Shown here: in pieces, positions 248-14,388 of the stretch
Position numbering within the stretch: position 1 is the first letter of the stretch
Layout: the number at the start of each line of letters is the position of its first letter
IMG/VR virus record: IMGVR_UViG_2693429700_000020
Origin: a virus
Lineage: Duplodnaviria; Heunggongvirae; Uroviricota; Caudoviricetes
Strand: one strand, 5' to 3'
Length of the DNA stretch: 14,388 nucleotides
Position numbers and translations under genes: made by a program
Notes under the pieces: model-generated
The model's database searches: none
What the model was told of the DNA's origin: nothing
What the model saw: only the letters and a program-made list of their open reading frames with translations

Positions 248-1723
248 TTAAGCATACGGGTCATAATCTGTGATGGCCTTGCCTTGCTGGTTCTGCTGCC
301 CAGGAATTCGCAGACGCTTCGACACAGGGAACGCAAACGTCAGCAGTAGCGCATCGCCTTTACCCGGCGAACGCCCAAGACGCTCTTTGATATCTTCCTT
401 CGGTTCGATAACGATTTTACCGTCCACACGAACTTTGTACTCTGCCGCCGACAGGTCGTCTGCTGTTTCCTGGTCATCCAGCATGCCGCCCAGCCTCAGC
501 CATGTCTTGCATGAATTGAACATCTCCCCACGCTTGTTGAGCATCTGCGGGTCAGTAGACGCGCCACCGAACGGAACAAGTTGCCATGTACGACCCCATC
601 CGTCACCGATTGACTTCAGACCGGTTCCGTAACCGAAGTCGATGAACACCGCGTCAGCCTGGTACTGGTCTTCAAAGTCAGCGATACGCTTCGCCATAAT
701 CAGATCGTCGGTGGTCTTGTTACCAGTCCATAGCACCTTACTGTGCAGCCCCTGCCGCAGGTATATCACCGCGTCATCAACGCCTGAGTATGCCGGGTCA
801 ACGCCGATTATCACCGGAGCATGTGCAACCTGCGCAGCGGTTACCACCCGTTTCATTGCCTCATCAGTAAGACCGGTAGGGATAAACTGCAATTCAGATG
901 CATCAGGGAATATGCCGCGCACACGGATTTTAACGAAGTCGCTGTCTTCCCCGTAGTCATCAACCCATTTCAGCAACTGCTGTTTGTTAGTGCCTTCCAC
1001 CGTCCGGCTGTCAATCTGCGCACACTTCCAGCGGTGTTTGTACTTGCGGAAACATTCACGGAAACGCCCGGTGTTACGCGTCGGGTTCCCGAACGCCACC
1101 CAGATGATTTCGGTGTCTTCGTCCGTCAGCGCACCCTCTGCTACCTCCCACACCAGATCGGCAATGTTCGACGCTTCATCGAATACCACGATGATGCGTT
1201 TGCGCTCGTTGTGTAGTCCGGCGAATGCCTCAGTGTTGTGCTCAGACCAGGGGATTGCGTCAGCTCGCCACCGCTTGTCGTGCCCAGGATCATTGCTGTA
1301 CATCGCGGTAGCGGTACAGGTAAACCAGTCTTTCGTGATAGCAAGGTTCGACCACTTGATAATTTCCGGCCAGGTCTTCGTTCGTAGCTGGTTGTCGGTG
1401 TTGGCGGTCACCACGACCTTACAATCCTCGCAGGTGGACATGCCCCAGTTGATCAGCATTGAGATGAATGCGGATTTACCAATACCGTGACCAGAAGCGC
1501 GTGCCAGCATAAGCGGCTGATAGCGCGTCTCTGGATTCTGCAGGTGATCACGTATCTCTCGGAACGCATCAGCCTGCCACTGACGTGGGCCGGTGGCATG
1601 TGCCAGTTCAGTCCCCTCTTCCCCCCACGGGAACGCATAGAGAGCATAGCCAAGCGGATCGTGAGTGAACCCTGCAATATCCTCGATCAACTGCTCTTCA
1701 GGAGATAACGCTGTATCTGTCAC
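248..1723 (-). CDS. terL: Phage terminase large subunit
   Basis: 491-aa ORF with a Walker A-like ARASGHGIGKS motif and terminase ATPase/nuclease-like layout; GTG start at 1723..1721 overlaps the terS stop (GTGA) and has an AGGATGG ribosome-binding site. Confidence 0.88.
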   Translation of the reverse strand: MTDTALSPEEQLIEDIAGFTHDPLGYALYAFPWGEEGTELAHATGPRQWQADAFREIRDHLQNPETRYQPLMLARASGHGIGKSAFISMLINWGMSTCEDCKVVVTANTDNQLRTKTWPEIIKWSNLAITKDWFTCTATAMYSNDPGHDKRWRADAIPWSEHNTEAFAGLHNERKRIIVVFDEASNIADLVWEVAEGALTDEDTEIIWVAFGNPTRNTGRFRECFRKYKHRWKCAQIDSRTVEGTNKQQLLKWVDDYGEDSDFVKIRVRGIFPDASELQFIPTGLTDEAMKRVVTAAQVAHAPVIIGVDPAYSGVDDAVIYLRQGLHSKVLWTGNKTTDDLIMAKRIADFEDQYQADAVFIDFGYGTGLKSIGDGWGRTWQLVPFGGASTDPQMLNKRGEMFNSCKTWLRLGGMLDDQETADDLSAAEYKVRVDGKIVIEPKEDIKERLGRSPGKGDALLLTFAFPVSKRLRIPGQQNQQGKAITDYDPYA

Positions 1724-2316
1724 TGATTACCATCCTGACGTTCTTTGAGTCGCTTCCTGGCTGCCGCTATGCGATCAGCAATTGTCACATTCACATTAAC
1801 ATCCAGGCGTTCTTTGAACGCGTTGACATCAACATGCTTACCAATCAGCTCAAGGTTCTTCACCTTGTCAGGCCATTTAATTTTTTTGAGGATTGTCTCT
1901 ATCGAATCCTCGTTCATGTTCATGATGGTCGATGACAGATCAAAGCCACTAAGCGTAGTGCGCCAGATTTTCGGCCACTCACGGATAGGTTTAAGGCTCC
2001 CATCGTCGTTGAGGATGTCGATCACGTCCATCTGGTCGATCTCCACTAGGCGCATGAGAACGTAATCAGCACTGACGCGCATTCGTTTGTTGCGCTCCTC
2101 CATCAACTCGGCAATCCGTTTTTGAATGCGTTCATCGCGCATCATGACACTGGCTTTAACTGCCGCTGTATTTGGGGAGAATCCTGCGTTAATCGCTGCC
2201 TGAGTCTGGTTTTCAGGCGTTTTGATGTATGACTGGCAATAAGCCTCCTGCATTGCTGTGAGCGGCTTAAATTGCGTTGATTTGCGTTTATAGGTTTTAG
2301 GTTCAGCAGGCATCAT
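1720..2316 (-). CDS. terS: Phage terminase small subunit (Terminase_2-like)
   Basis: Translation from the ATG pair at 2316/2313 (MMPAEPKTYKRK...LTAMQEAYCQSYIKTPENQTQAAINAGFSPNTAAVKASVMMRDERIQKRIAELMEE) matches the recalled small-terminase pattern. The 26 codons upstream in the track ORF are the translation of operator repeats and are not believed to be coding. GGTGG ribosome-binding site before the ATG. Confidence 0.8.
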   Translation of the reverse strand: MMPAEPKTYKRKSTQFKPLTAMQEAYCQSYIKTPENQTQAAINAGFSPNTAAVKASVMMRDERIQKRIAELMEERNKRMRVSADYVLMRLVEIDQMDVIDILNDDGSLKPIREWPKIWRTTLSGFDLSSTIMNMNEDSIETILKKIKWPDKVKNLELIGKHVDVNAFKERLDVNVNVTIADRIAAARKRLKERQDGNQ

Positions 2317-2348
2317 AACCACCGTGGTAATAGTTACCGTTGTGGTAA
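2316..2348. promoter_or_regulatory. Two adjacent operator-like palindromes (TAACC-accgt-GGTAA 2316-2330; TTACC-gttgt-GGTAA 2334-2348) abutting the terS start codon
   Basis: Same 15-bp TTACC-N5-GGTAA palindrome as in the immunity region; centres 18 bp apart; the first overlaps the terS ATG. Confidence 0.6.
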
Positions 2349-2354
2349 TAGTAA

Positions 2355-2386
2355 CATGCAAAATAAAGCCGCCATAGTTGGCGGCA
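2355..2386 (-). terminator. Rho-independent terminator after the 2391-2618 ORF, immediately before the terS operator sites
   Basis: Minus-strand reading gives GCCGCCA-acta-TGGCGGC followed by TTTATTTTG. Confidence 0.65.
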
Positions 2387-2390
2387 GTAT

Positions 2391-2618
2391 TCAAAGTCCA
2401 TCAAATTCATCGTAAAAACTCTCGTCAAGATACCCTTCCCATTTACCGCGAATGAAAATTACATCCTCGCCGCAAGGGTGCTGACTGTCGATAACTATAT
2501 CCCTCCTGGCGCAACCATACTTATGCATGAGAAATTTAACCTCTTTCGGAAAATTTGCTGAGTTATCTCTCATATCTTCAAGGTCGTAGCGTATTTTTGG
2601 CATAACACCTCGTGACAT
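2391..2618 (-). CDS. Hypothetical small protein (70-75 aa); start ambiguous between ATG 2618 and ATG 2603
   Basis: The ATG at 2618..2616 sits at the centre of the GTGACATGTCAC palindrome; the ATG at 2603..2601 is preceded by GAGGTG. No family recognised. Confidence 0.45.
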   Translation of the reverse strand: MSRGVMPKIRYDLEDMRDNSANFPKEVKFLMHKYGCARRDIVIDSQHPCGEDVIFIRGKWEGYLDESFYDEFDGL

Positions 2619-2624
2619 GTCACA
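2601..2624. repeat. Copy 2 of the conserved block with the 12-bp perfect palindrome GTGACATGTCAC (2612-2623)
   Basis: CATAACACCTC-GTGACATGTCACA; overlaps the stop codon of the 2620-2958 gene and the first ATG of the 2391-2618 ORF. Confidence 0.8.
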
Positions 2625-2958
2625 CTATTAATTTCGTTTCATGCCAACCTTTGGTCACCCAGCATTGCGAGTCACCATTACACGGGCATGAATTCACAGG
2701 AACTCTCTCGCCGCACTTACCGCAACGTTTTCTGCTGATCGATTTTATACGCCCGCGCACGCGTGCATCATCCTGGCGGATCAGTAACGCTATATACTCA
2801 CCAAATTCGTAAGGCGCACGCCCGGGGCGACGCGTGGCACAGTTACGCTCCAGCATTTCAATTTCCTGAGCATCAAGCACAATTTCCAGCTTACGCACAC
2901 CAGATGCAGCTTGTCTGGCTCTCTGAGCGGCTTTGCGCTCTGATGCTGATTTAGCCAT
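2620..2958 (-). CDS. Hypothetical basic protein with C-terminal Cys cluster (CGKCG...CPCNG...C), possible zinc-ribbon DNA-binding regulator
   Basis: ATG at 2958..2956 (the track ORF begins one codon earlier at TTG 2961); Lys/Arg-rich N-terminus and CxxC / CxC / C motifs. No confident family assignment. Confidence 0.5.
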   Translation of the reverse strand: MAKSASERKAAQRARQAASGVRKLEIVLDAQEIEMLERNCATRRPGRAPYEFGEYIALLIRQDDARVRGRIKSISRKRCGKCGERVPVNSCPCNGDSQCWVTKGWHETKLIV

Positions 2959-3232
2959 CAATATTTACCTTTATCGCGAACACTTTTACCGGTTTATCAC
3001 CGAAGTGGGGGTGTGTGATTGTTTTCACTTCATATCCTCCATACGGAACATCAATTCTGCAACTGGAGTCGTCGCGCTTCGGATATCCCTTTGTGATAAT
3101 CAGGCGGTCATACTCCCGGAACATAATTCGCTTATTCCAGTAGTCATTACACAGGCGATACTCCTCGGTTTTCTCGCCACGAATCATGGCATCGAAGTAT
3201 TCACCTTTTACGGCAAGTTGCAGGTTAGCCAC
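2951..3232 (-). CDS. ASCH/PUA-like domain protein (DUF3850-like)
   Basis: GTG start at 3232 preceded by AGGAGG; N-terminal LQLAVKGEYFDAMIRGEKTEEYR resembles the ASCH signature as I recall it. Confidence 0.5.
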   Translation of the reverse strand: MANLQLAVKGEYFDAMIRGEKTEEYRLCNDYWNKRIMFREYDRLIITKGYPKRDDSSCRIDVPYGGYEVKTITHPHFGDKPVKVFAIKVNIDG

Positions 3233-3509
3233 GACCTTCCTCCTTTGGCTTGTGAATTTGTATCGTCATGCCGCTTTGAGTGGTGACTACAATGACAGAA
3301 CCAGGCTGAAGGCTGTTAAGATTGAATGCTTCGTAAAACGAATCCAATGCCAGTGCTTTTTTATTCTTTCGGTTCCACCAACGCCATCCCTTGCTACAGG
3401 CTACACTGACAATCCACTGCCCACTCCTGTAAGCCATATAAAACCAGATGAGCAAAACCTGAAGGAAGGCCATCCAGTCAATAATCGTATATTTCGCGAA
3501 GGAGTCCAT
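3225..3509 (-). CDS. Small predicted membrane protein (about 94 aa)
   Basis: ATG at 3509..3507 overlaps the stop of the upstream gene (ATGA-type coupling); hydrophobic segment IIDWMAFLQVLLIWFYMAY. The track ORF 3225-3656 extends further upstream in-frame, but that extension overlaps the preceding gene. Confidence 0.5.
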   Translation of the reverse strand: MDSFAKYTIIDWMAFLQVLLIWFYMAYRSGQWIVSVACSKGWRWWNRKNKKALALDSFYEAFNLNSLQPGSVIVVTTQSGMTIQIHKPKEEGRG

Positions 3510-4309
3510 CAATTCACCTCCTGCGGCGGTTCTGGTAGCGGCATCCAGAACAAGACGTTCCCTAACCACGATAAAGTGCCGTCGCTCAACTCCACGTATT
3601 CCCCTTGTACCTGTCCTGCCATATACTCGCCGTGCTTTGAATAAATTAAAATCCAATCATCTTGAGCGGGCATTCGCTCACTACAGCTTATCCAACCATC
3701 CTGAGTTACCGGAGAGTTGCCATTTACATCGAAGTTTGGCTCTGCGTCCTGAACCAGGAGGATGTAACCATTCTTGGCAGTATCAAGTTCTAACGCCTCG
3801 GTGACGGTGCCGAAATAGCGATTACCTAAATCAGCATCACAAGTGCTTACATCAATGGAAACTTCCATGCCTTCGATTAATTCTGGCAAGTTGTAAGTTT
3901 GGCTTACAGGTTGGCTACCCTGACGCATGGCAGCGTGGCAGGCATCCTCTACGCCCTTAACTGCATCTGCGCAGTAGTTATAGCGATTGCATTCCACTAA
4001 TTTCTGCTTGAAGTTTTCAATTGCTAACTCGATTTCATCCGGCACTACCGGCTCTGGTTGGATAGTGACGTTGGCAAAGGCAGCACGCAAACCGGCCTTA
4101 ATTTCCTCTACTTCATCAGCGCCTAGCGATGAATCTGACAATGCGTGATGGAATGCGTATGCCATGTCGTCGTTTACTGCAACCGGCTCTGCTTCCAGCG
4201 ACGCCAGAGCAATTTCATAAGCACGACGCTCAATATTGTCTCGCACGTCCAGGCTGCCTATGCGCTCTTTGATTTCTTTAATCAGTTCTTTGTCGGTAAA
4301 AGTGGTCAT
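3509..4309 (-). CDS. Ea22-like N-terminal region fused to a DUF551-like C-terminal domain
   Basis: ATG at 4309 with AGGAG ribosome-binding site; N-terminus shares the SLEAEPV motif with the 4585-5061 paralog; C-terminus has WISCSERMP...WMPLPEPP, typical of DUF551 prophage proteins as recalled. Confidence 0.6.
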   Translation of the reverse strand: MTTFTDKELIKEIKERIGSLDVRDNIERRAYEIALASLEAEPVAVNDDMAYAFHHALSDSSLGADEVEEIKAGLRAAFANVTIQPEPVVPDEIELAIENFKQKLVECNRYNYCADAVKGVEDACHAAMRQGSQPVSQTYNLPELIEGMEVSIDVSTCDADLGNRYFGTVTEALELDTAKNGYILLVQDAEPNFDVNGNSPVTQDGWISCSERMPAQDDWILIYSKHGEYMAGQVQGEYVELSDGTLSWLGNVLFWMPLPEPPQEVN

Positions 4310-4319
4310 GTGTTACTCC

Positions 4320-4583
4320 TTAACCCGCAGTGCTTTCAACTGACGAGGGGAATAAAATCGTTTCATCAAATCCGGCATTCATATCATGAACAGCAGCACA
4401 CCAATCCATTGACGAACGATTATCAAGAGCCTCCATGATTTCATCCATGCGGCGTAGGTCATACAGGTAAATGTTTTTATCGCCAATGGTGTAAAAGCCA
4501 ATTTTTTTCGGCGATGGACAGCGATCAAGAACGTCCTGTAAGTCGTTCAACCATGCCCGTTCTTTTTTTGTCAAAGTTGTCAT
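4320..4583 (-). CDS. Hypothetical phage protein (87 aa)
   Basis: ATG at 4583 with AGGAGAG ribosome-binding site; tightly packed in the operon; no family recognised. Confidence 0.5.
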   Translation of the reverse strand: MTTLTKKERAWLNDLQDVLDRCPSPKKIGFYTIGDKNIYLYDLRRMDEIMEALDNRSSMDWCAAVHDMNAGFDETILFPSSVESTAG

Positions 4584-4584
4584 A

Positions 4585-5061
4585 TCACTCTCCTTTGATG
4601 CCTATATTTACAGCCAGGCAAGCTTCTTCGAGCACCCAGTCAACAGCGTCTTTCCACGCACCAGTCCCAACTGGCGGATTCTCATTTTTTACCTGCTCAT
4701 AAAAACGCACCGCTTTAACCAGTCCTTCAGGCACTACAGGTACTGGCAAGGCAGCGTGACAGTAGAGTGGCATAGTTTTGTACAGGGGGGCGCCAGGACT
4801 TCCGTCAACCTGATTCCATTCTTCAACCCAGGCATCAACAACCGCTTTGCTGGTTGATACATGTTCTTCTGAATCTACATTTTGTCCTGATATACAGAAC
4901 ATAACTGGCTCTGCTTCCAGTGATGCGTCCAATACATCAAGCAATGCCAGTACAACCTCCGGCGTAGCCGCAGCATGAAAAGCCTGTAGGTTCTGCCACG
5001 TCGTCTCCTCCTTCGCGACCTCTGCCGCCTCTCGCAGTGCCTGATAGTCAATCTTGCTCAC
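4585..5061 (-). CDS. Ead/Ea22-like family protein
   Basis: GTG start at 5061 with AGGAGG ribosome-binding site; N-terminus MSKIDYQALREAAE... and PEVVLALLDVLD match the recalled Ead/Ea22-like pattern. Confidence 0.6.
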   Translation of the reverse strand: MSKIDYQALREAAEVAKEETTWQNLQAFHAAATPEVVLALLDVLDASLEAEPVMFCISGQNVDSEEHVSTSKAVVDAWVEEWNQVDGSPGAPLYKTMPLYCHAALPVPVVPEGLVKAVRFYEQVKNENPPVGTGAWKDAVDWVLEEACLAVNIGIKGE

Positions 5062-5302
5062 TGGTTGCCTCCTGCTTTTCTGCCTTCAACACCATGCGAG
5101 AACCATCATCCAGCTCCCACGCGATCTCACCACCTTCAGCCATGACCAGTCGCCACACCAATTGAGCAGCCTCATTGGTAACATCACGACCTGGATCATT
5201 GCCAACGCGCATACGTCCACCTTCAACATCGCGCATTTTTGCCAGCATGATAGTTTTTGATAGCGGTGAAAAACCAAGCTGTAGTCGTGCTGAATTACTC
5301 AC
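5048..5302 (-). CDS. Hypothetical phage protein (84 aa)
   Basis: GTG start at 5302 with the same AGGAGGCAACCAGTGAG initiation region as the 4585-5061 gene; overlaps the neighbouring stop. Confidence 0.45.
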   Translation of the reverse strand: MSNSARLQLGFSPLSKTIMLAKMRDVEGGRMRVGNDPGRDVTNEAAQLVWRLVMAEGGEIAWELDDGSRMVLKAEKQEATSEQD

Positions 5303-5832
5303 TGGTTGCCTCCTTTGCGAAGCTCAGCGGCGAAGGCTACTGCGTGATCATGATGTTCAAGTGTGTATGCGCACTCAGCAAACATCTCCACGCCCTGCGC
5401 TCGTACTTCAGCCAGGAAAGCGTCGGTGGCTGGGGTGTCTGATTGCAGAGACTTTGCGCGATAGTCATTCCACCCTCTTGCATACATGGGATTAACTTGC
5501 ACTCCATCTTTTACGCAATATGCCTGCCCTCCACGGTTGATAACCTTGATTTCGTCCATAGCGCCAGACTTCAGCCCCGCATTCTCCGCCGCCAGCGCTG
5601 AAAACTTCTCGTGTGCCAACTTAACAGCTGCATCAGCCTGCTTAATTGACTCAATCGCTTTCTGCTGGTCTTCGGCCAGCGCATTAGCACGCACCAGTTG
5701 CACTTCCAGTTGCGTTGCCAAATCGCTGATCAGCTTTGCCACACTACGCATATCAACGGCACCACATTCTGCTTTCAGTTCCGAAGCCATCTCATGCCCG
5801 GCGGAAACTAACCCTTTGATATTACTTTCCAT
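5299..5832 (-). CDS. Coiled-coil phage protein, possibly Ea22-like
   Basis: ATG at 5832 with GAGGG ribosome-binding site; Ala/Glu/Lys-rich helical N-terminal half plus a globular C-terminal half. Confidence 0.45.
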   Translation of the reverse strand: MESNIKGLVSAGHEMASELKAECGAVDMRSVAKLISDLATQLEVQLVRANALAEDQQKAIESIKQADAAVKLAHEKFSALAAENAGLKSGAMDEIKVINRGGQAYCVKDGVQVNPMYARGWNDYRAKSLQSDTPATDAFLAEVRAQGVEMFAECAYTLEHHDHAVAFAAELRKGGNQ

Positions 5833-7141: not shown

Positions 7142-7953
7142 AAGAAATCCTCCCACGCTTCAGGGCTGTTCCAGTGCGGAACGTTGTTATCAGGTAATGT
7201 TGATTGCTTCTGTCTGCTAATCTGCAGCCGCCTTGCCAGCTTCTGCTCCCACTGTGCCTGATGGTATGCCTTACCCTCAGCCATCCAGTAAATTCTGAAT
7301 TCTGCAAGTTCCTGTGCCGTTGGCAGACTGTCCAGGTAGATTCCCTGCAATGAGCTTTTCCGAAGAAAGTCATCTGATGGTTGCCATTGTTCATGCATGA
7401 CAAATTTGCCTAATTGCCCTGGCCCACCAGGAGGAACAAAGTTATTCATCACGGCGTTGTTTGCGCCGGGGTCATGAGGCACAGAATCCCCGGTTTTTGT
7501 CCTGCTCTCCCTCTCTTGGTTAAATGACTGGTTATATGACTGGTTCTGGATCCCGTTTTTGGGATCATTCAACATCCCGTTTTTGGGATCATTCAACATC
7601 CCGTTTTTGGGTATATTCCCGTTTTCGGGAACATTACCGTTTTCGGGTTCATTACACCCTTCCCGGTTGCCTTTAATGTTCCCGTTTTTGGTTATATTAA
7701 GAGAGAAAACCCGCACTCTTTTCGTCGCTCCCTTTCTCTCTCCGGTATCTGAAATAAGCCCCATTTTCATGAGCGATATAAGCCCGGACTGCACGGTTTT
7801 TTTATTCAGGCAAGTGTCTTTAACGAGGCGTTCTATGCTGGGGTAGCAGAGGTTATATTCATCGGCTCTGTCAGCCATCGAGAGCAGTATGAGCTTTAAT
7901 GATGAGCTACCTGGGTCTGTCTCCCAGGCCCAATCTGTTGCATGTCTGCTCAT
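7138..7953 (-). CDS. Replication initiator (O-like): N-terminal helix-turn-helix domain, repeat-encoded low-complexity linker, C-terminal domain
   Basis: ATG at 7953 with GGAG ribosome-binding site; sits directly upstream of the P-like gene; contains the iteron array, as lambda O contains ori. Confidence 0.7.
   Translation of the reverse strand: MSRHATDWAWETDPGSSSLKLILLSMADRADEYNLCYPSIERLVKDTCLNKKTVQSGLISLMKMGLISDTGERKGATKRVRVFSLNITKNGNIKGNREGCNEPENGNVPENGNIPKNGMLNDPKNGMLNDPKNGIQNQSYNQSFNQERESRTKTGDSVPHDPGANNAVMNNFVPPGGPGQLGKFVMHEQWQPSDDFLRKSSLQGIYLDSLPTAQELAEFRIYWMAEGKAYHQAQWEQKLARRLQISRQKQSTLPDNNVPHWNSPEAWEDFL
7552..7692. repeat. Iteron-like direct repeats (candidate replication origin) inside the O-like gene
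   Basis: CCCGTTTT(T/C)GGG core at 7552, 7576, 7600, 7618, about 7636 and 7681 (periods 24, 24, 18, 18); two exact 24-bp units CCCGTTTTTGGGATCATTCAACAT; a second short repeat ATGACTGGTT at 7525 and 7537. Confidence 0.7.
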
Positions 7954-8704: not shown

Positions 8705-9289
8705 ATGAAAAGTATCCAGGACGTCCGCAGGCAAAATCTCAACGACTTGATCGACCGTGAATTCAATGGTGTTCAGACGCGGATGGCAGAAAAACTTGGA
8801 ACTCAGGCAAATCTGGTAAACCGCTGGGCTCTTGGCAAGAAGGTTATCGGCGACCAGGTTGCGCGAAAAATTGAAGCTGCCGCCAATAAACCCCGTAACT
8901 GGCTTGATATCGATCGCTCGCTTTCTCAGGAGGGGTTTCAGCCTGTCGGCCCAAGCGACATTGGTCAGCTGGCGGCTCACAACCTGGAACGCTGGATGAG
9001 CGAAAGCCGCGACCTTTCAACACAGGGAAAACTTCACCGCGCATCCGGCGTCGCCCAGGTGACAATCAGCCGCCTGTTAAACAATGAGGTCAGTGTTTCC
9101 ATTTCCACCCTGGAGAATGTTGCATCCGCATTCGGGCGTCACGGATATGAACTACTGATTCACCCGCATGACCCTGCAACTATCAACTATGACCGCTCGC
9201 GCTACGCATTGTTACCCGAAACCGAGAAAGCAAAGATCGAAAGTTACATTGAATTTGTCATCAACCAGAACGAAAAAAACAAACAATAA
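8705..9289 (+). CDS. Phage repressor (CI-like role) with two XRE-type helix-turn-helix domains and no S24 peptidase domain
   Basis: 194 aa; HTH-like segments QTRMAEKLGTQANLVNRW and LHRASGVAQVTISRLLNN; lies between the two operator regions like lambda cI; weak ribosome-binding site. Confidence 0.7.
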   Translation: MKSIQDVRRQNLNDLIDREFNGVQTRMAEKLGTQANLVNRWALGKKVIGDQVARKIEAAANKPRNWLDIDRSLSQEGFQPVGPSDIGQLAAHNLERWMSESRDLSTQGKLHRASGVAQVTISRLLNNEVSVSISTLENVASAFGRHGYELLIHPHDPATINYDRSRYALLPETEKAKIESYIEFVINQNEKNKQ

Positions 9290-11891: not shown

Positions 11892-12033
11892 GTGCGCTGC
11901 TAAGGCACTGGAGCAAATGGTCAGGATGGTACTTATTCCTGGCCTCTGTTTCAGCATGGCTTTATCTGCTGGCATTAATTTTCAGAGAGGGTTGGATTAA
12001 GTGAGAAAGTTAAGCCGACTTGAAAAATATCAC

Positions 12034-12300
12034 ATGAACAAGGTTTCAATGCGCAGTCCGTCAAAGATTGTCGCCGTTACTCCTGCGGCGATAGAGATCG
12101 AAAAACGCGCGATTGAAAGAGAGAAAAAAGGGCAGTTCCGCATTGCCGCTCACCTTTGGCTTCAGTGTATGGATGTTGCTTCTGGTGATGTTGAGCGTGC
12201 AAGGATCGCGGTTCGCAGGGACCAATGTATCACAAAAGGTAACGGCCTTCGCCGTGGCGACTATAGCGGCATAGGATGTTGTGGGGTGGTTTATGACTAA
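12034..12300 (+). CDS. PerC-family transcriptional regulator-like protein
   Basis: RIAAHLWLQCMDVA ... ERARIAVRRDQCIT resembles the PerC signature as recalled; the most likely start is ATG 12049 (AAGG ribosome-binding site); the track ORF begins at 12001. Confidence 0.5.
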   Translation: MNKVSMRSPSKIVAVTPAAIEIEKRAIEREKKGQFRIAAHLWLQCMDVASGDVERARIAVRRDQCITKGNGLRRGDYSGIGCCGVVYD

Positions 12301-13137: not shown

Positions 13138-14388
13138 TTATTCCCCCGCCATCCACTTCTCAAACTTCGACGGGGAGAACGGAATCAGATCCGTATGCTC
13201 CCCGTTAATCCAGGAATCAATCATATCGGCCCACTGCTGCAACATGTAGGCGCGCTGTCTGGCGTATTCCGCTTTGTTATATACGGCGCGCACACCTTTC
13301 TGCTCATGTGCCAAAGCTTTTTCAATCCAGTCTGAAGGATAACCAGCCTCATGCAACAACGTACTGGCTGTACGGCGCATATCATGTACAGTGAAGTCCT
13401 GAATATGCTCACCATCTTCATTTATTATTTTCACCGTTCTGTCGATCAGAGAGTTCAGCGCGGCATTAGATAATGGCTTCCGGAAATTGTAACGACCAGG
13501 AACCAGATATTCACTTCCACCAGCGCACATCTGCAACCCGACCAATATATCCTGTGCCTGTTTAGGCAGGTAAATAACGTGCGCCCGGCTTCCCTTCATG
13601 CGGTCTGGAGGAATTGTCCATGTCCATTTTTTAAAATCTATTTCATCCCACGATGCATTGGTGAATTCGCCCTTACGAACCATAGTGATAAGCACCAGTT
13701 TTAAAGCCATTTTCATAGTGCCCATAGCACCAATGGCATCCAGCGTGCGGAAGAACAGGCCAATTTCTTCTGGTGTCAGTGTTCGCTCTCGTGGTTTAAA
13801 TATGGCGATAGACGAAGGTTTAATGTCAGCCGCAGGATTAAACAAACCATGACCACGGTCATTGGCGTGACGGTATACGCTACTGATGATCTCCCTGGCC
13901 TGCACTGCTGTTGCCCGGCCACCGCGTTCGACAATCCGGTCACACAAATCACGAACCATCGATGTGGTAATTTCAGCCATCATTTTATTGCCAAGAACCG
14001 GAAGTATGTCCCGGTCGATCACCGCCTGTTTCATTGCGCGGGTACTGTCAGCCAGGATGACGTGTTTCATATAACTGTCGGTATGTACCGCAAACGTCTC
14101 GGCACCACGAATCTTTTTGATACCGTCACGTTTAGCCGCAGCCGGTGACTGGCCTGCTTTAAGCAGCTTCTTTGCAGCAATCAGTTCTTCTCGCGCTTCT
14201 GCCAGGCTGATACCGTCACGCCCATACTGCCCGATTACCAGCGTTTCGCGGCGACCGTTGATACGGTAGTCGTAGCGAAACGAGACCGTGCCTGACGTAA
14301 GCACAGCTACATACAGCCCGTCACGATCGGAGACCTTGTACAGTTTGTCCTGCGGCTTGAGGTTTTTTAATTTTGTATCGGTAAGCAC
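13138..14388 (-). CDS. int: Tyrosine integrase, P4-type (N-terminus runs off the right window edge)
   Basis: 416 aa in window; N-terminal LTDTKLKNLKPQDKLYKVSDRDGLYVAV arm-binding-type region; C-terminal HDMRRTASTLLHEAGYPSDWIEKALAH ... VRAVYNKAEY contains the catalytic H-x-x-R and Tyr. Confidence 0.9.
   Translation of the reverse strand: MLTDTKLKNLKPQDKLYKVSDRDGLYVAVLTSGTVSFRYDYRINGRRETLVIGQYGRDGISLAEAREELIAAKKLLKAGQSPAAAKRDGIKKIRGAETFAVHTDSYMKHVILADSTRAMKQAVIDRDILPVLGNKMMAEITTSMVRDLCDRIVERGGRATAVQAREIISSVYRHANDRGHGLFNPAADIKPSSIAIFKPRERTLTPEEIGLFFRTLDAIGAMGTMKMALKLVLITMVRKGEFTNASWDEIDFKKWTWTIPPDRMKGSRAHVIYLPKQAQDILVGLQMCAGGSEYLVPGRYNFRKPLSNAALNSLIDRTVKIINEDGEHIQDFTVHDMRRTASTLLHEAGYPSDWIEKALAHEQKGVRAVYNKAEYARQRAYMLQQWADMIDSWINGEHTDLIPFSPSKFEKWMAGE

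Follow-up and report, generated by a model that had tools for sequence, protein, structure and literature searches.

We analysed a stretch of viral DNA of 14,388 nucleotides (Caudoviricetes; IMG/VR record IMGVR_UViG_2693429700_000020), referred to here as the window, and in it a block of four small genes, g4, g3, g2 and g1, at positions 2,391 to 3,509, in front of the terminase genes. DNA and annotation matches place the window in the phiV10/epsilon15 group, genus Uetakevirus, as an E. coli prophage; the genes of interest are all on the minus strand and gene order is given in that direction. The reading that we favour, with somewhat better than even confidence, is that the early-right operon ends in this block, a mosaic and largely dispensable tail, and that g2 and its cognate palindromes form a boundary element. 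It builds on the gene content of the block, the fold of g2, the positions of the palindromic sites and their co-conservation with g2, which were established in this analysis. The g2 product is predicted to be a dimeric, sequence-specific DNA-binding protein of the ribbon-helix-helix (RHH) type with GTGAC-N2-GTCAC as its putative operator; its action as a roadblock at operon ends is speculative. An RHH protein with a four-Cys cluster and a palindrome that is both self-adjacent and dispersed appears, from the sequences compared, to be a new and widespread arrangement, undescribed in the literature searched. The features on which the argument depends are the following.

3225 to 3509, minus strand: g4, a DUF4752 protein (PHROG 667) with one N-terminal hydrophobic helix; optional accessory gene
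2951 to 3232, minus strand: g3, a small ASCH-like (PUA-fold) protein (PHROG 625, E 2e-49); optional accessory gene
2620 to 2958, minus strand: g2, a basic, predicted DNA-binding protein with RHH and four-Cys (zinc-ribbon-like) parts (PHROG 536)
2612 to 2623: site A, a perfect 12-bp palindrome, GTGACATGTCAC, that spans the stop codon (TGA) of g2 and adjoins the ribosome-binding site of g1
2391 to 2618, minus strand: g1, a 75-aa acidic protein (PHROG 1541, E 3e-39); optional
2358 to 2385, minus strand: t1, the intrinsic terminator between the early operon and terS, with a 7-bp stem, six G-C pairs and a U-tract
2317 to 2357, minus strand: terS leader, with two copies of ACTATTACCAC (2324-2334 and 2342-2352)
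1720 to 2316, minus strand: terS, the small terminase subunit (Pfam Terminase_2, E 1e-29; PHROG 51)
248 to 1723, minus strand: terL, the large terminase subunit (PHROG 2 and PHROG 5902; phiV10 p02)
178 to 197: t2, a bidirectional intrinsic terminator after terL (AGCCAGC-TCATCG-GCTGGCT), annotated at the equivalent phiV10 position
162 to 173: site B, a second exact copy of GTGACATGTCAC, 4 nt from t2

Sites A and B are the only perfect palindromes of at least 12 bp in the window, and they are the same 12-mer; the chance of two such palindromes being identical is about 1 in 4,096. Since site A overlaps the stop codon of g2, gene and site travel as one cassette. In phiV10 the motif occurs at three places: one copy, with a single mismatch, is at the g2 stop, and two are exact, one of them beyond the terL terminator and the other adjoining the terminator of the structural operon (called site C below). 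In an epsilon15-like Salmonella phage the three corresponding operon ends each have an exact copy despite diverged flanks. Related loci were collected as 80 viral contigs recovered with g2; the site is present at the g2 stop in 76 of the 80 loci and after terL in 53 of 77, and only one further copy, away from the A and B positions, is found in 603 kb of these loci.

Distant homologues of g2 also have palindromes at or near the gene. The stop codon of N15 gp46 (35% identity) lies inside CGTGACTGGTCACG, which has two further identical copies in that genome; ZF40 carries TGTGACATGTCACA 2 nt past the stop of gp22 and three copies in total; and in the lambda-like phage Chlobot, where the gene is part of the leftward operon, the site lies 7 nt past the stop of the homologue. 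Metagenomic phages of the P0213 type have TTGTGACAGGTCACAA, and those of the P0249 type a conserved GTGAC-NG-GTAAC, on the stop codon of the g2 homologue. In all five of these lineages the site is at the stop or at most 13 nt away. Vibrio phage K303 contains three GTGACNNGTCAC copies (two GTGACACGTCAC and one GTGACGCGTCAC), of which one precedes terS by 30 nt; a P2-like Yersinia phage has an exact copy and, 33 bp away, a near one; and an Aeromonas phage has the variant GTGACCGGACAC four times, once 25 nt upstream of the g2 homologue. The three copies each of N15, ZF40 and K303 compare with about 0.04 expected per genome. No site is found in lambda or in 12 kb of ST104, both of which are without g2. 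The central or half-site bases shift along with the divergence of the g2 protein. In the reverse direction, a g2 homologue is present within a few kb in 32 of 120 viral stretches that contain TGTGACATGTCACA, and the site abuts its stop codon in 19. Two other functions for the palindromes were considered and rejected. The N15 copies are not SopB centromere repeats, which have the sequence GTGCGACCNNGGTCGCAC (PMC7205306), and a packaging site does not fit N15 and ZF40, where no copy lies near the terminase genes or cos. Literature searches for the palindrome, epsilon15 gp49 (the g2 homologue) and DUF4752 returned nothing relevant, and the papers on phiV10 and ZX5 do not treat the genes of the block.

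The distribution of the four genes differs from gene to gene. According to megablast against 5,426 complete E. coli genomes, g1 is found in 103, g2 in 637, g3 in 1,469 and g4 in 546 genomes, and the whole 1.4-kb stretch in 82. Among the 80 viral loci g3 is present in 59, g1 in 25 and g4 in 15, with all four genes together in eight; the order g2, optionally g1, terS, terL is kept in 79. On the chromosome NZ_CP027552.1, about 2 Mb separate g1 from g3/g4. Phages that lack g1 retain its first ~10 and last ~20 nt, so that its absence is a 186-bp deletion. Genes g4 and g3 correspond to orf7 and orf6 of the P22-like phage ST104, in the ea region adjoining xis/int, and the order Ead/Ea22, DUF4752, ASCH is kept next to xis/int there and also in Stx phages. 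The four genes are a patchwork of optional prophage genes, with g2 as the sole constant one.

An earlier note on this DNA, made from the sequence alone, had proposed that the four genes might be one host-takeover, exclusion or anti-defence set, and had named beforehand a failure of the genes to co-occur in other genomes, along with the lack of a phenotype on expression or deletion, as what would speak against it. The genes do not co-occur, as the counts above demonstrate, and the proposal was not borne out. The tight overlap and presumed co-transcription of the genes and their place in a variable cargo zone are in keeping with such a module, and individual accessory roles of g1, g3 and g4 are still compatible with the data. 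Against it, the genes assort independently, to the point of the 2-Mb separation in NZ_CP027552.1; none of the PADLOC protein models matches g1-g4 or the DUF551 neighbour at E <= 0.1; and g2 retains its position and sites whatever its neighbours. We therefore give a joint module a very small probability. A toxin-antitoxin pair, with g2 as RHH antitoxin and g1 as toxin, was also rejected: g1 accompanies g2 in only 25 of the 80 loci (103 versus 637 genomes). The acidic g1 protein matched no toxin family. What the note had said of the position, that it is a frequent site for accessory cargo, agrees with a mosaic, dispensable zone in which g3 and g4 are shared with the P22-like ea region and g1 is a 186-bp indel. 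Compared with the lambda exo-xis and P22 ea-region genes, g3, g4 and the upstream Ea22 and DUF551 genes belong to the same families (Ead/Ea22, DUF4752, ASCH) in the same order, but their place in the window is the end of the rightward early operon, ahead of the terminase genes. The block was also a good place to look, as the note had suggested; the interest lies in g2 and its DNA sites, one of which (162-173) is outside the coordinates of the block.

The g2 protein corresponds to phiV10 p55 and epsilon15 gp49, and PHROG 536 is labelled 'transcriptional regulator'. An exhaustive HMMER search of 1.8 billion representatives gave only 151 clusters for the family, whose full-length members have 27-77% identity. 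Its hosts are, in all genera found, an enterobacterium, Vibrio or Aeromonas. The common plan has RKxxQRxR in an N-terminal helix, followed by a strand, two helices and CxxC...C...C; in 55 family members C79 and C82 are invariant and two more Cys are near-invariant. The AlphaFold2 model of g2 has a mean predicted local distance difference test score (pLDDT) of 91.7 when members of 27-60% identity are included in the alignment, and of 60 with close homologues only. In this model the protein has the strand-helix-helix arrangement that defines the RHH (CopG/Arc/MetJ) superfamily. Foldseek against PDB and BFVD returned nothing informative besides a fragment of the family itself, and a sequence search against PDB chains gave no match. 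With curated RHH models, one or two of the 55 members touch RHH_1 or RHH_5 (E 0.01-0.07), and the window protein matches neither. Relative to known RHH regulators (CopG/Arc/MetJ; P22 Arc, Mnt and the RHH antitoxins), g2 adds the N-terminal basic helix and the conserved C-terminal four-Cys cluster; its site is not in a promoter but where the gene itself ends and at the ends of operons, and unlike the antitoxins g2 has no toxin partner. A side observation concerns Chlobot 17009-17487, where the g2 homologue is intact in one frame and the record gives a 'UmuD-like protein' and a 46-aa 'transcriptional regulator'; this looks like a mis-annotation.

Between the block and terS, the strong terminator t1 (2368-2385, GCCGCCAACTATGGCGGC followed by TTTATTTTG) lies directly after g1 and is kept in all related loci. 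In the epsilon15-like Salmonella phage it is present in tandem duplicate, as GGCCGCCGACTATGGCGGCTTTGTTTTG twice, at the circular junction (~120 nt, from 39,851 to the terS start). The two ACTATTACCAC copies of the leader are 18 nt apart and form, together with GGUAA/UUACC, a hairpin in which the terS ribosome-binding site GGUGG is buried; the folding of this region has a z score of -3.7 and is better than that of 200 of 200 shuffles, and the modelled hairpin may place terS under translational control. The open-reading-frame finder and RefSeq start terS at the TTG at 2394, in a frame that passes through t1. Substitutions among relatives in 2317-2394 are mostly non-synonymous in that frame; the polymorphisms ignore it, and the region is therefore a leader, with the real terS start at ATG 2316 (or 2313). 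The block was described as lying directly upstream of the terminase genes, and the position is correct; a direct fusion to terS is not, since the terminator and the structured leader stand between. Over 1600-4500, neither strand yielded a sigma-70-like promoter, hence none was seen between site A and terS, and terS probably depends on read-through. A model of g2 as an activator at site A was dropped: by eye, there is no conserved -10 element at activator distance from the site when phages with and without g1 are compared.

The sequence of events that we propose for the boundary element is as follows. The g2 dimer, with its N-terminal basic helix and C-terminal four-Cys cluster, would bind GTGAC-N2-GTCAC at its own stop codon and at further sites at operon ends beside intrinsic terminators, namely after terL and, in complete relatives, where the structural operon ends. 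g2, the last product of the early operon, would accumulate and come to occupy these sites; occupancy would then limit or tune read-through at operon ends, both into g1/terS and between convergent units, and binding at site A would feed back on the g2 transcript. Genes g1, g3 and g4 would be independent optional genes of the lambda/P22 'ea' kind. A boundary or roadblock role fits the placement of the sites, which are found at gene 3' ends or close to them, frequently next to intrinsic terminators and between units that converge. The arrangement is also reminiscent of parB-parS and sopB-sopC, in which the gene of a DNA-binding protein (for g2, a predicted one) likewise has a cognate site directly 3' and more copies elsewhere on the replicon. 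It differs from these in that g2 has no partner ATPase and is found in integrating phages; the centromere repeats of N15 are also of a different sequence, as given above.

Several points weigh against this interpretation. The link between g2 and its sites is one of association, and a site that adjoins a gene is inherited with it trivially, so the argument rests on the dispersed copies and on the change of the motif along with the divergence of the protein. Some of the N15 and ZF40 sites are inside coding regions (repA, cII, gp08) and are a poorer fit to boundaries. A roadblock at site A seems contrary to the expression of the terminase, because no sigma-70-like promoter was detected ahead of terS. 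Sequence hidden Markov models of RHH families scarcely detect the g2 family. Finally, many contigs contain two or three copies of the palindrome and no g2 homologue in the stretch retrieved. These include the IMG/VR stretches L173, L196, L202, L204, L226 and L234, among others, in which two to three palindromes lie within a few kb and neither a g2 homologue nor a Uetakevirus terminase is found in the part retrieved. In these cases, either g2 is encoded in another part of the contig or the palindrome serves a different protein.

The position of g2 and the probable dependence of terS on read-through can also be explained if g2 is the missing late regulator of epsilon15-type phages. Like Q, it would load on RNA polymerase at site A and allow read-through of t1 into terS and terL. 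In the Uetakevirus genomes g2 resembles lambda Q and other late antiterminators as the last early gene before the terminator and the packaging genes; g1 aside, it is always the gene directly before t1 and terS. Neither a Q-like protein nor another late activator is annotated in phiV10, and the K303 site that precedes terS by 30 nt is suggestive. In addition, the C-terminal half of g2 (residues 47-107) has a weak profile match to TraR and YbiI, zinc-finger proteins that bind the secondary channel of RNA polymerase (E 0.04 in a PDB profile search; hhalign probability 68%, with a pairwise E of 5e-5 that is not database-scaled). With TraR, DksA and YbiI, g2 shares a long helix, a CxxC...C cluster and a short C-terminal helix. 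However, none of the 55 members matches PF01258 (zf-dskA_traR), and the Cys pattern, CxxC-x8-CxC-x5-C, has no second CxxC and so differs from the CxxC-x17-CxxC finger. The 'N-terminal helix' of g2 is helix B of the RHH core, which makes a TraR-style reach into the polymerase channel impossible. Moreover, N15 (gp40) and Chlobot each have a bona fide Q besides their g2 homologue, which in Chlobot is encoded in the leftward operon by xis/int; other homologues are found after gpA in P2-like Yersinia phages. Sites B and C are at operon ends that face convergent genes, where antitermination would be harmful. Neither sequence nor fold similarity to lambda Q was found, and there is no adjoining promoter with a binding element. 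On this evidence, a Q-like role is unlikely.

The palindrome may, alternatively, not be a protein-binding DNA site but act in RNA, as a small hairpin at gene junctions that affects mRNA stability or the coupling of translation, or it may be a junction at which mosaic modules recombine. The site spans the stop codon and abuts the next ribosome-binding site in the window as well as in N15, Chlobot and K303, and it is found at module boundaries. As RNA, however, the 12-nt palindrome can form a stem of just 4 bp closed by a 4-nt loop, and at sites B and C, which are flanked by convergent genes, coupling would have no downstream gene to act on. The dyad symmetry is strict and is kept while the centre varies, as is characteristic of sites recognised by dimeric proteins. 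We regard an RNA-level or junction function as very improbable.

The half-sites are identical to those of matS of E. coli, GTGACRNYGTCAC, a 13-bp site (PMC6907758). Its ligand MatP is an RHH protein with a four-helix bundle and a coiled coil (PMC12756933) and acts as a sequence-specific unloader of MukBEF (PMC8669397). The phage sites may be matS-like, either bound by the MatP of the host or bound by g2 as a phage analogue of MatP that bridges or positions DNA or excludes SMC complexes (MukBEF). The number of sites, few and dispersed in each genome, recalls the layout of matS. The hosts of g2 homologues are also relevant here. MatP is present in enterobacteria, Vibrio and Aeromonas, the groups in which all these hosts are found. 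K303 has one true matS-type site, a 13-bp GTGACACCGTCAC at 19491-19503 that is an exact fit to the E. coli matS consensus and overlaps the stop of gene 27; it coexists with the three 12-bp sites of that genome. On the other hand, the spacer is 2 bp and not 3 in every Uetakevirus, ZF40 and N15 site, and there is no 13-mer matS site in the window. The number of sites tracks g2 and not the host, with none in lambda, and the 5-bp half-site match was spotted after the fact and may be a coincidence. Sequence homology to MatP was rejected (hhalign of the g2 family versus E. coli MatP, probability 0.4%), and g2 has neither PF06303 nor PF17414 (the N-terminal four-helix bundle and the RHH domain of MatP), both of which MatP proteins carry; the four-helix bundle and the coiled coil of MatP are absent from g2. 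To summarise the comparison, MatP and g2 have in common the RHH fold, the GTGAC half-site palindrome (for g2, as predicted binding site) and few dispersed sites per replicon; the g2 site is of 12 bp and not 13, a zinc-type cluster takes the place of the bundle and coiled coil, and no sequence homology is detectable. The resemblance is a lead and not a membership, and the matS-like explanation as such is quite improbable. A broader proposal, which we consider rather unlikely, is that g2 and its palindromes are a portable, matS-like cassette that marks phage DNA at a few operon boundaries in temperate phages of MatP-bearing bacteria. It might act as a new type of protein-based transcription insulator against terminator-resistant polymerase, or as a MatP mimic that bridges DNA or unloads SMC complexes (MukBEF or related defence complexes).

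About 12% of complete E. coli genomes carry a member of the g2 family, which also occurs in podovirus, siphovirus and myovirus phages. The family includes proteins of the classic models epsilon15, phiV10 and N15, which have been 'hypothetical' since those genomes appeared, and it can now be connected with a DNA motif and a constant layout, in which the stop codon of the gene carries the site. As phiV10 has no annotated late regulator, this is relevant to the way in which early, packaging and structural transcription are kept apart in epsilon15-type phages. The identity of the half-sites with matS raises a possible link to the chromosome-organising machinery of the host. The four-gene block as such is ordinary mosaic prophage cargo.

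Concerning the individual genes, the four open reading frames were confirmed where they had been reported, and encode proteins of 94 (g4), 93 (g3), 112 (g2) and 75 (g1) aa. The genes are packed as tightly as had been described: base 3509 is common to g4 and the upstream DUF551 gene, g4/g3 and g3/g2 overlap by 8 nt each, and the g2/g1 junction is TGAcATG. The term 'uncharacterised' needs correction, since all four genes are in existing PHROG families (1541, 536, 625 and 667 for g1 to g4) and are thus unnamed rather than unseen. The descriptions of three of the products held up well. The 'small membrane protein' is g4, which matches Pfam PF15944 (DUF4752) over its full length (E 2e-36; 124.3 bits against a gathering cut-off of 27) and has one N-terminal hydrophobic segment with a Kyte-Doolittle hydropathy of 1.65 across residues 8-26. 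The 'ASCH/PUA-like' g3 has a match to Pfam ASCH (PF04266; E 0.024, 15.8 bits) that is under the gathering cut-off of 21.2, and RefSeq names its homologues ASCH. Its residues 19-26, G19-E-K-T-E-E-Y-R26, are of the GxKxxExR type, which we take to be the ASCH signature. A sequence search of g3 against PDB chains gave no match. The 'Cys-rich basic protein' is g2, with a pI of 9.8, six Cys and 23 Lys and Arg. No Pfam family was matched by g1, whose homologues align only from residue 4-5 onward; its true start is likely the ATG at 2603 (M6). An NCBIfam search gave no useful match.

The remaining features of the window, from its far end towards the block, are listed below.

13138 to 14388: P4-type integrase
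Plus strand: leftward early operon (PerC-like, methylase, AlpA, RecT, YqaJ)
8705 to 9289: cI-like repressor, with a cro-like gene alongside
Between the repressor region and the block, in the direction of the minus strand: O-like and P-like replication genes, then DUF1064, DUF7446, Ead/Ea22 and DUF551, followed by the four-gene block
3509 to 4309: DUF551 gene, the upstream neighbour of g4

Some minor observations were made outside the block. Positions 1-141, on the minus strand and 3' of terL, hold the terminal part of an insertion sequence of the IS3 family, TGAACCGCCCCGG..., which has an open reading frame that begins MTKNTRFSPEVRQRAIRMVLESQ (HTH_Tnp_1 match, E 1e-3). It occupies the place where phiV10 has gene p03 next, so that the prophage is broken directly after terL and may be defective through this insertion. 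The O-like replication gene contains, at 7547-7699, five to six tandem repeats of 18-24 nt, ATCCCGTTTTTGGGATCATTC-like, which are probably the iterons of an origin. In the leftward early operon, 12001-12300 encodes a putative transcriptional activator of the PerC family (E 6e-7; compare phiV10 p34). Finally, a 20-nt repeat, TTGCTCACTGGTTGCCTCCT, is found with 95% identity at two consecutive gene junctions, 5054-5073 and 5295-5314, and may be a common junction sequence that serves mosaic exchange.

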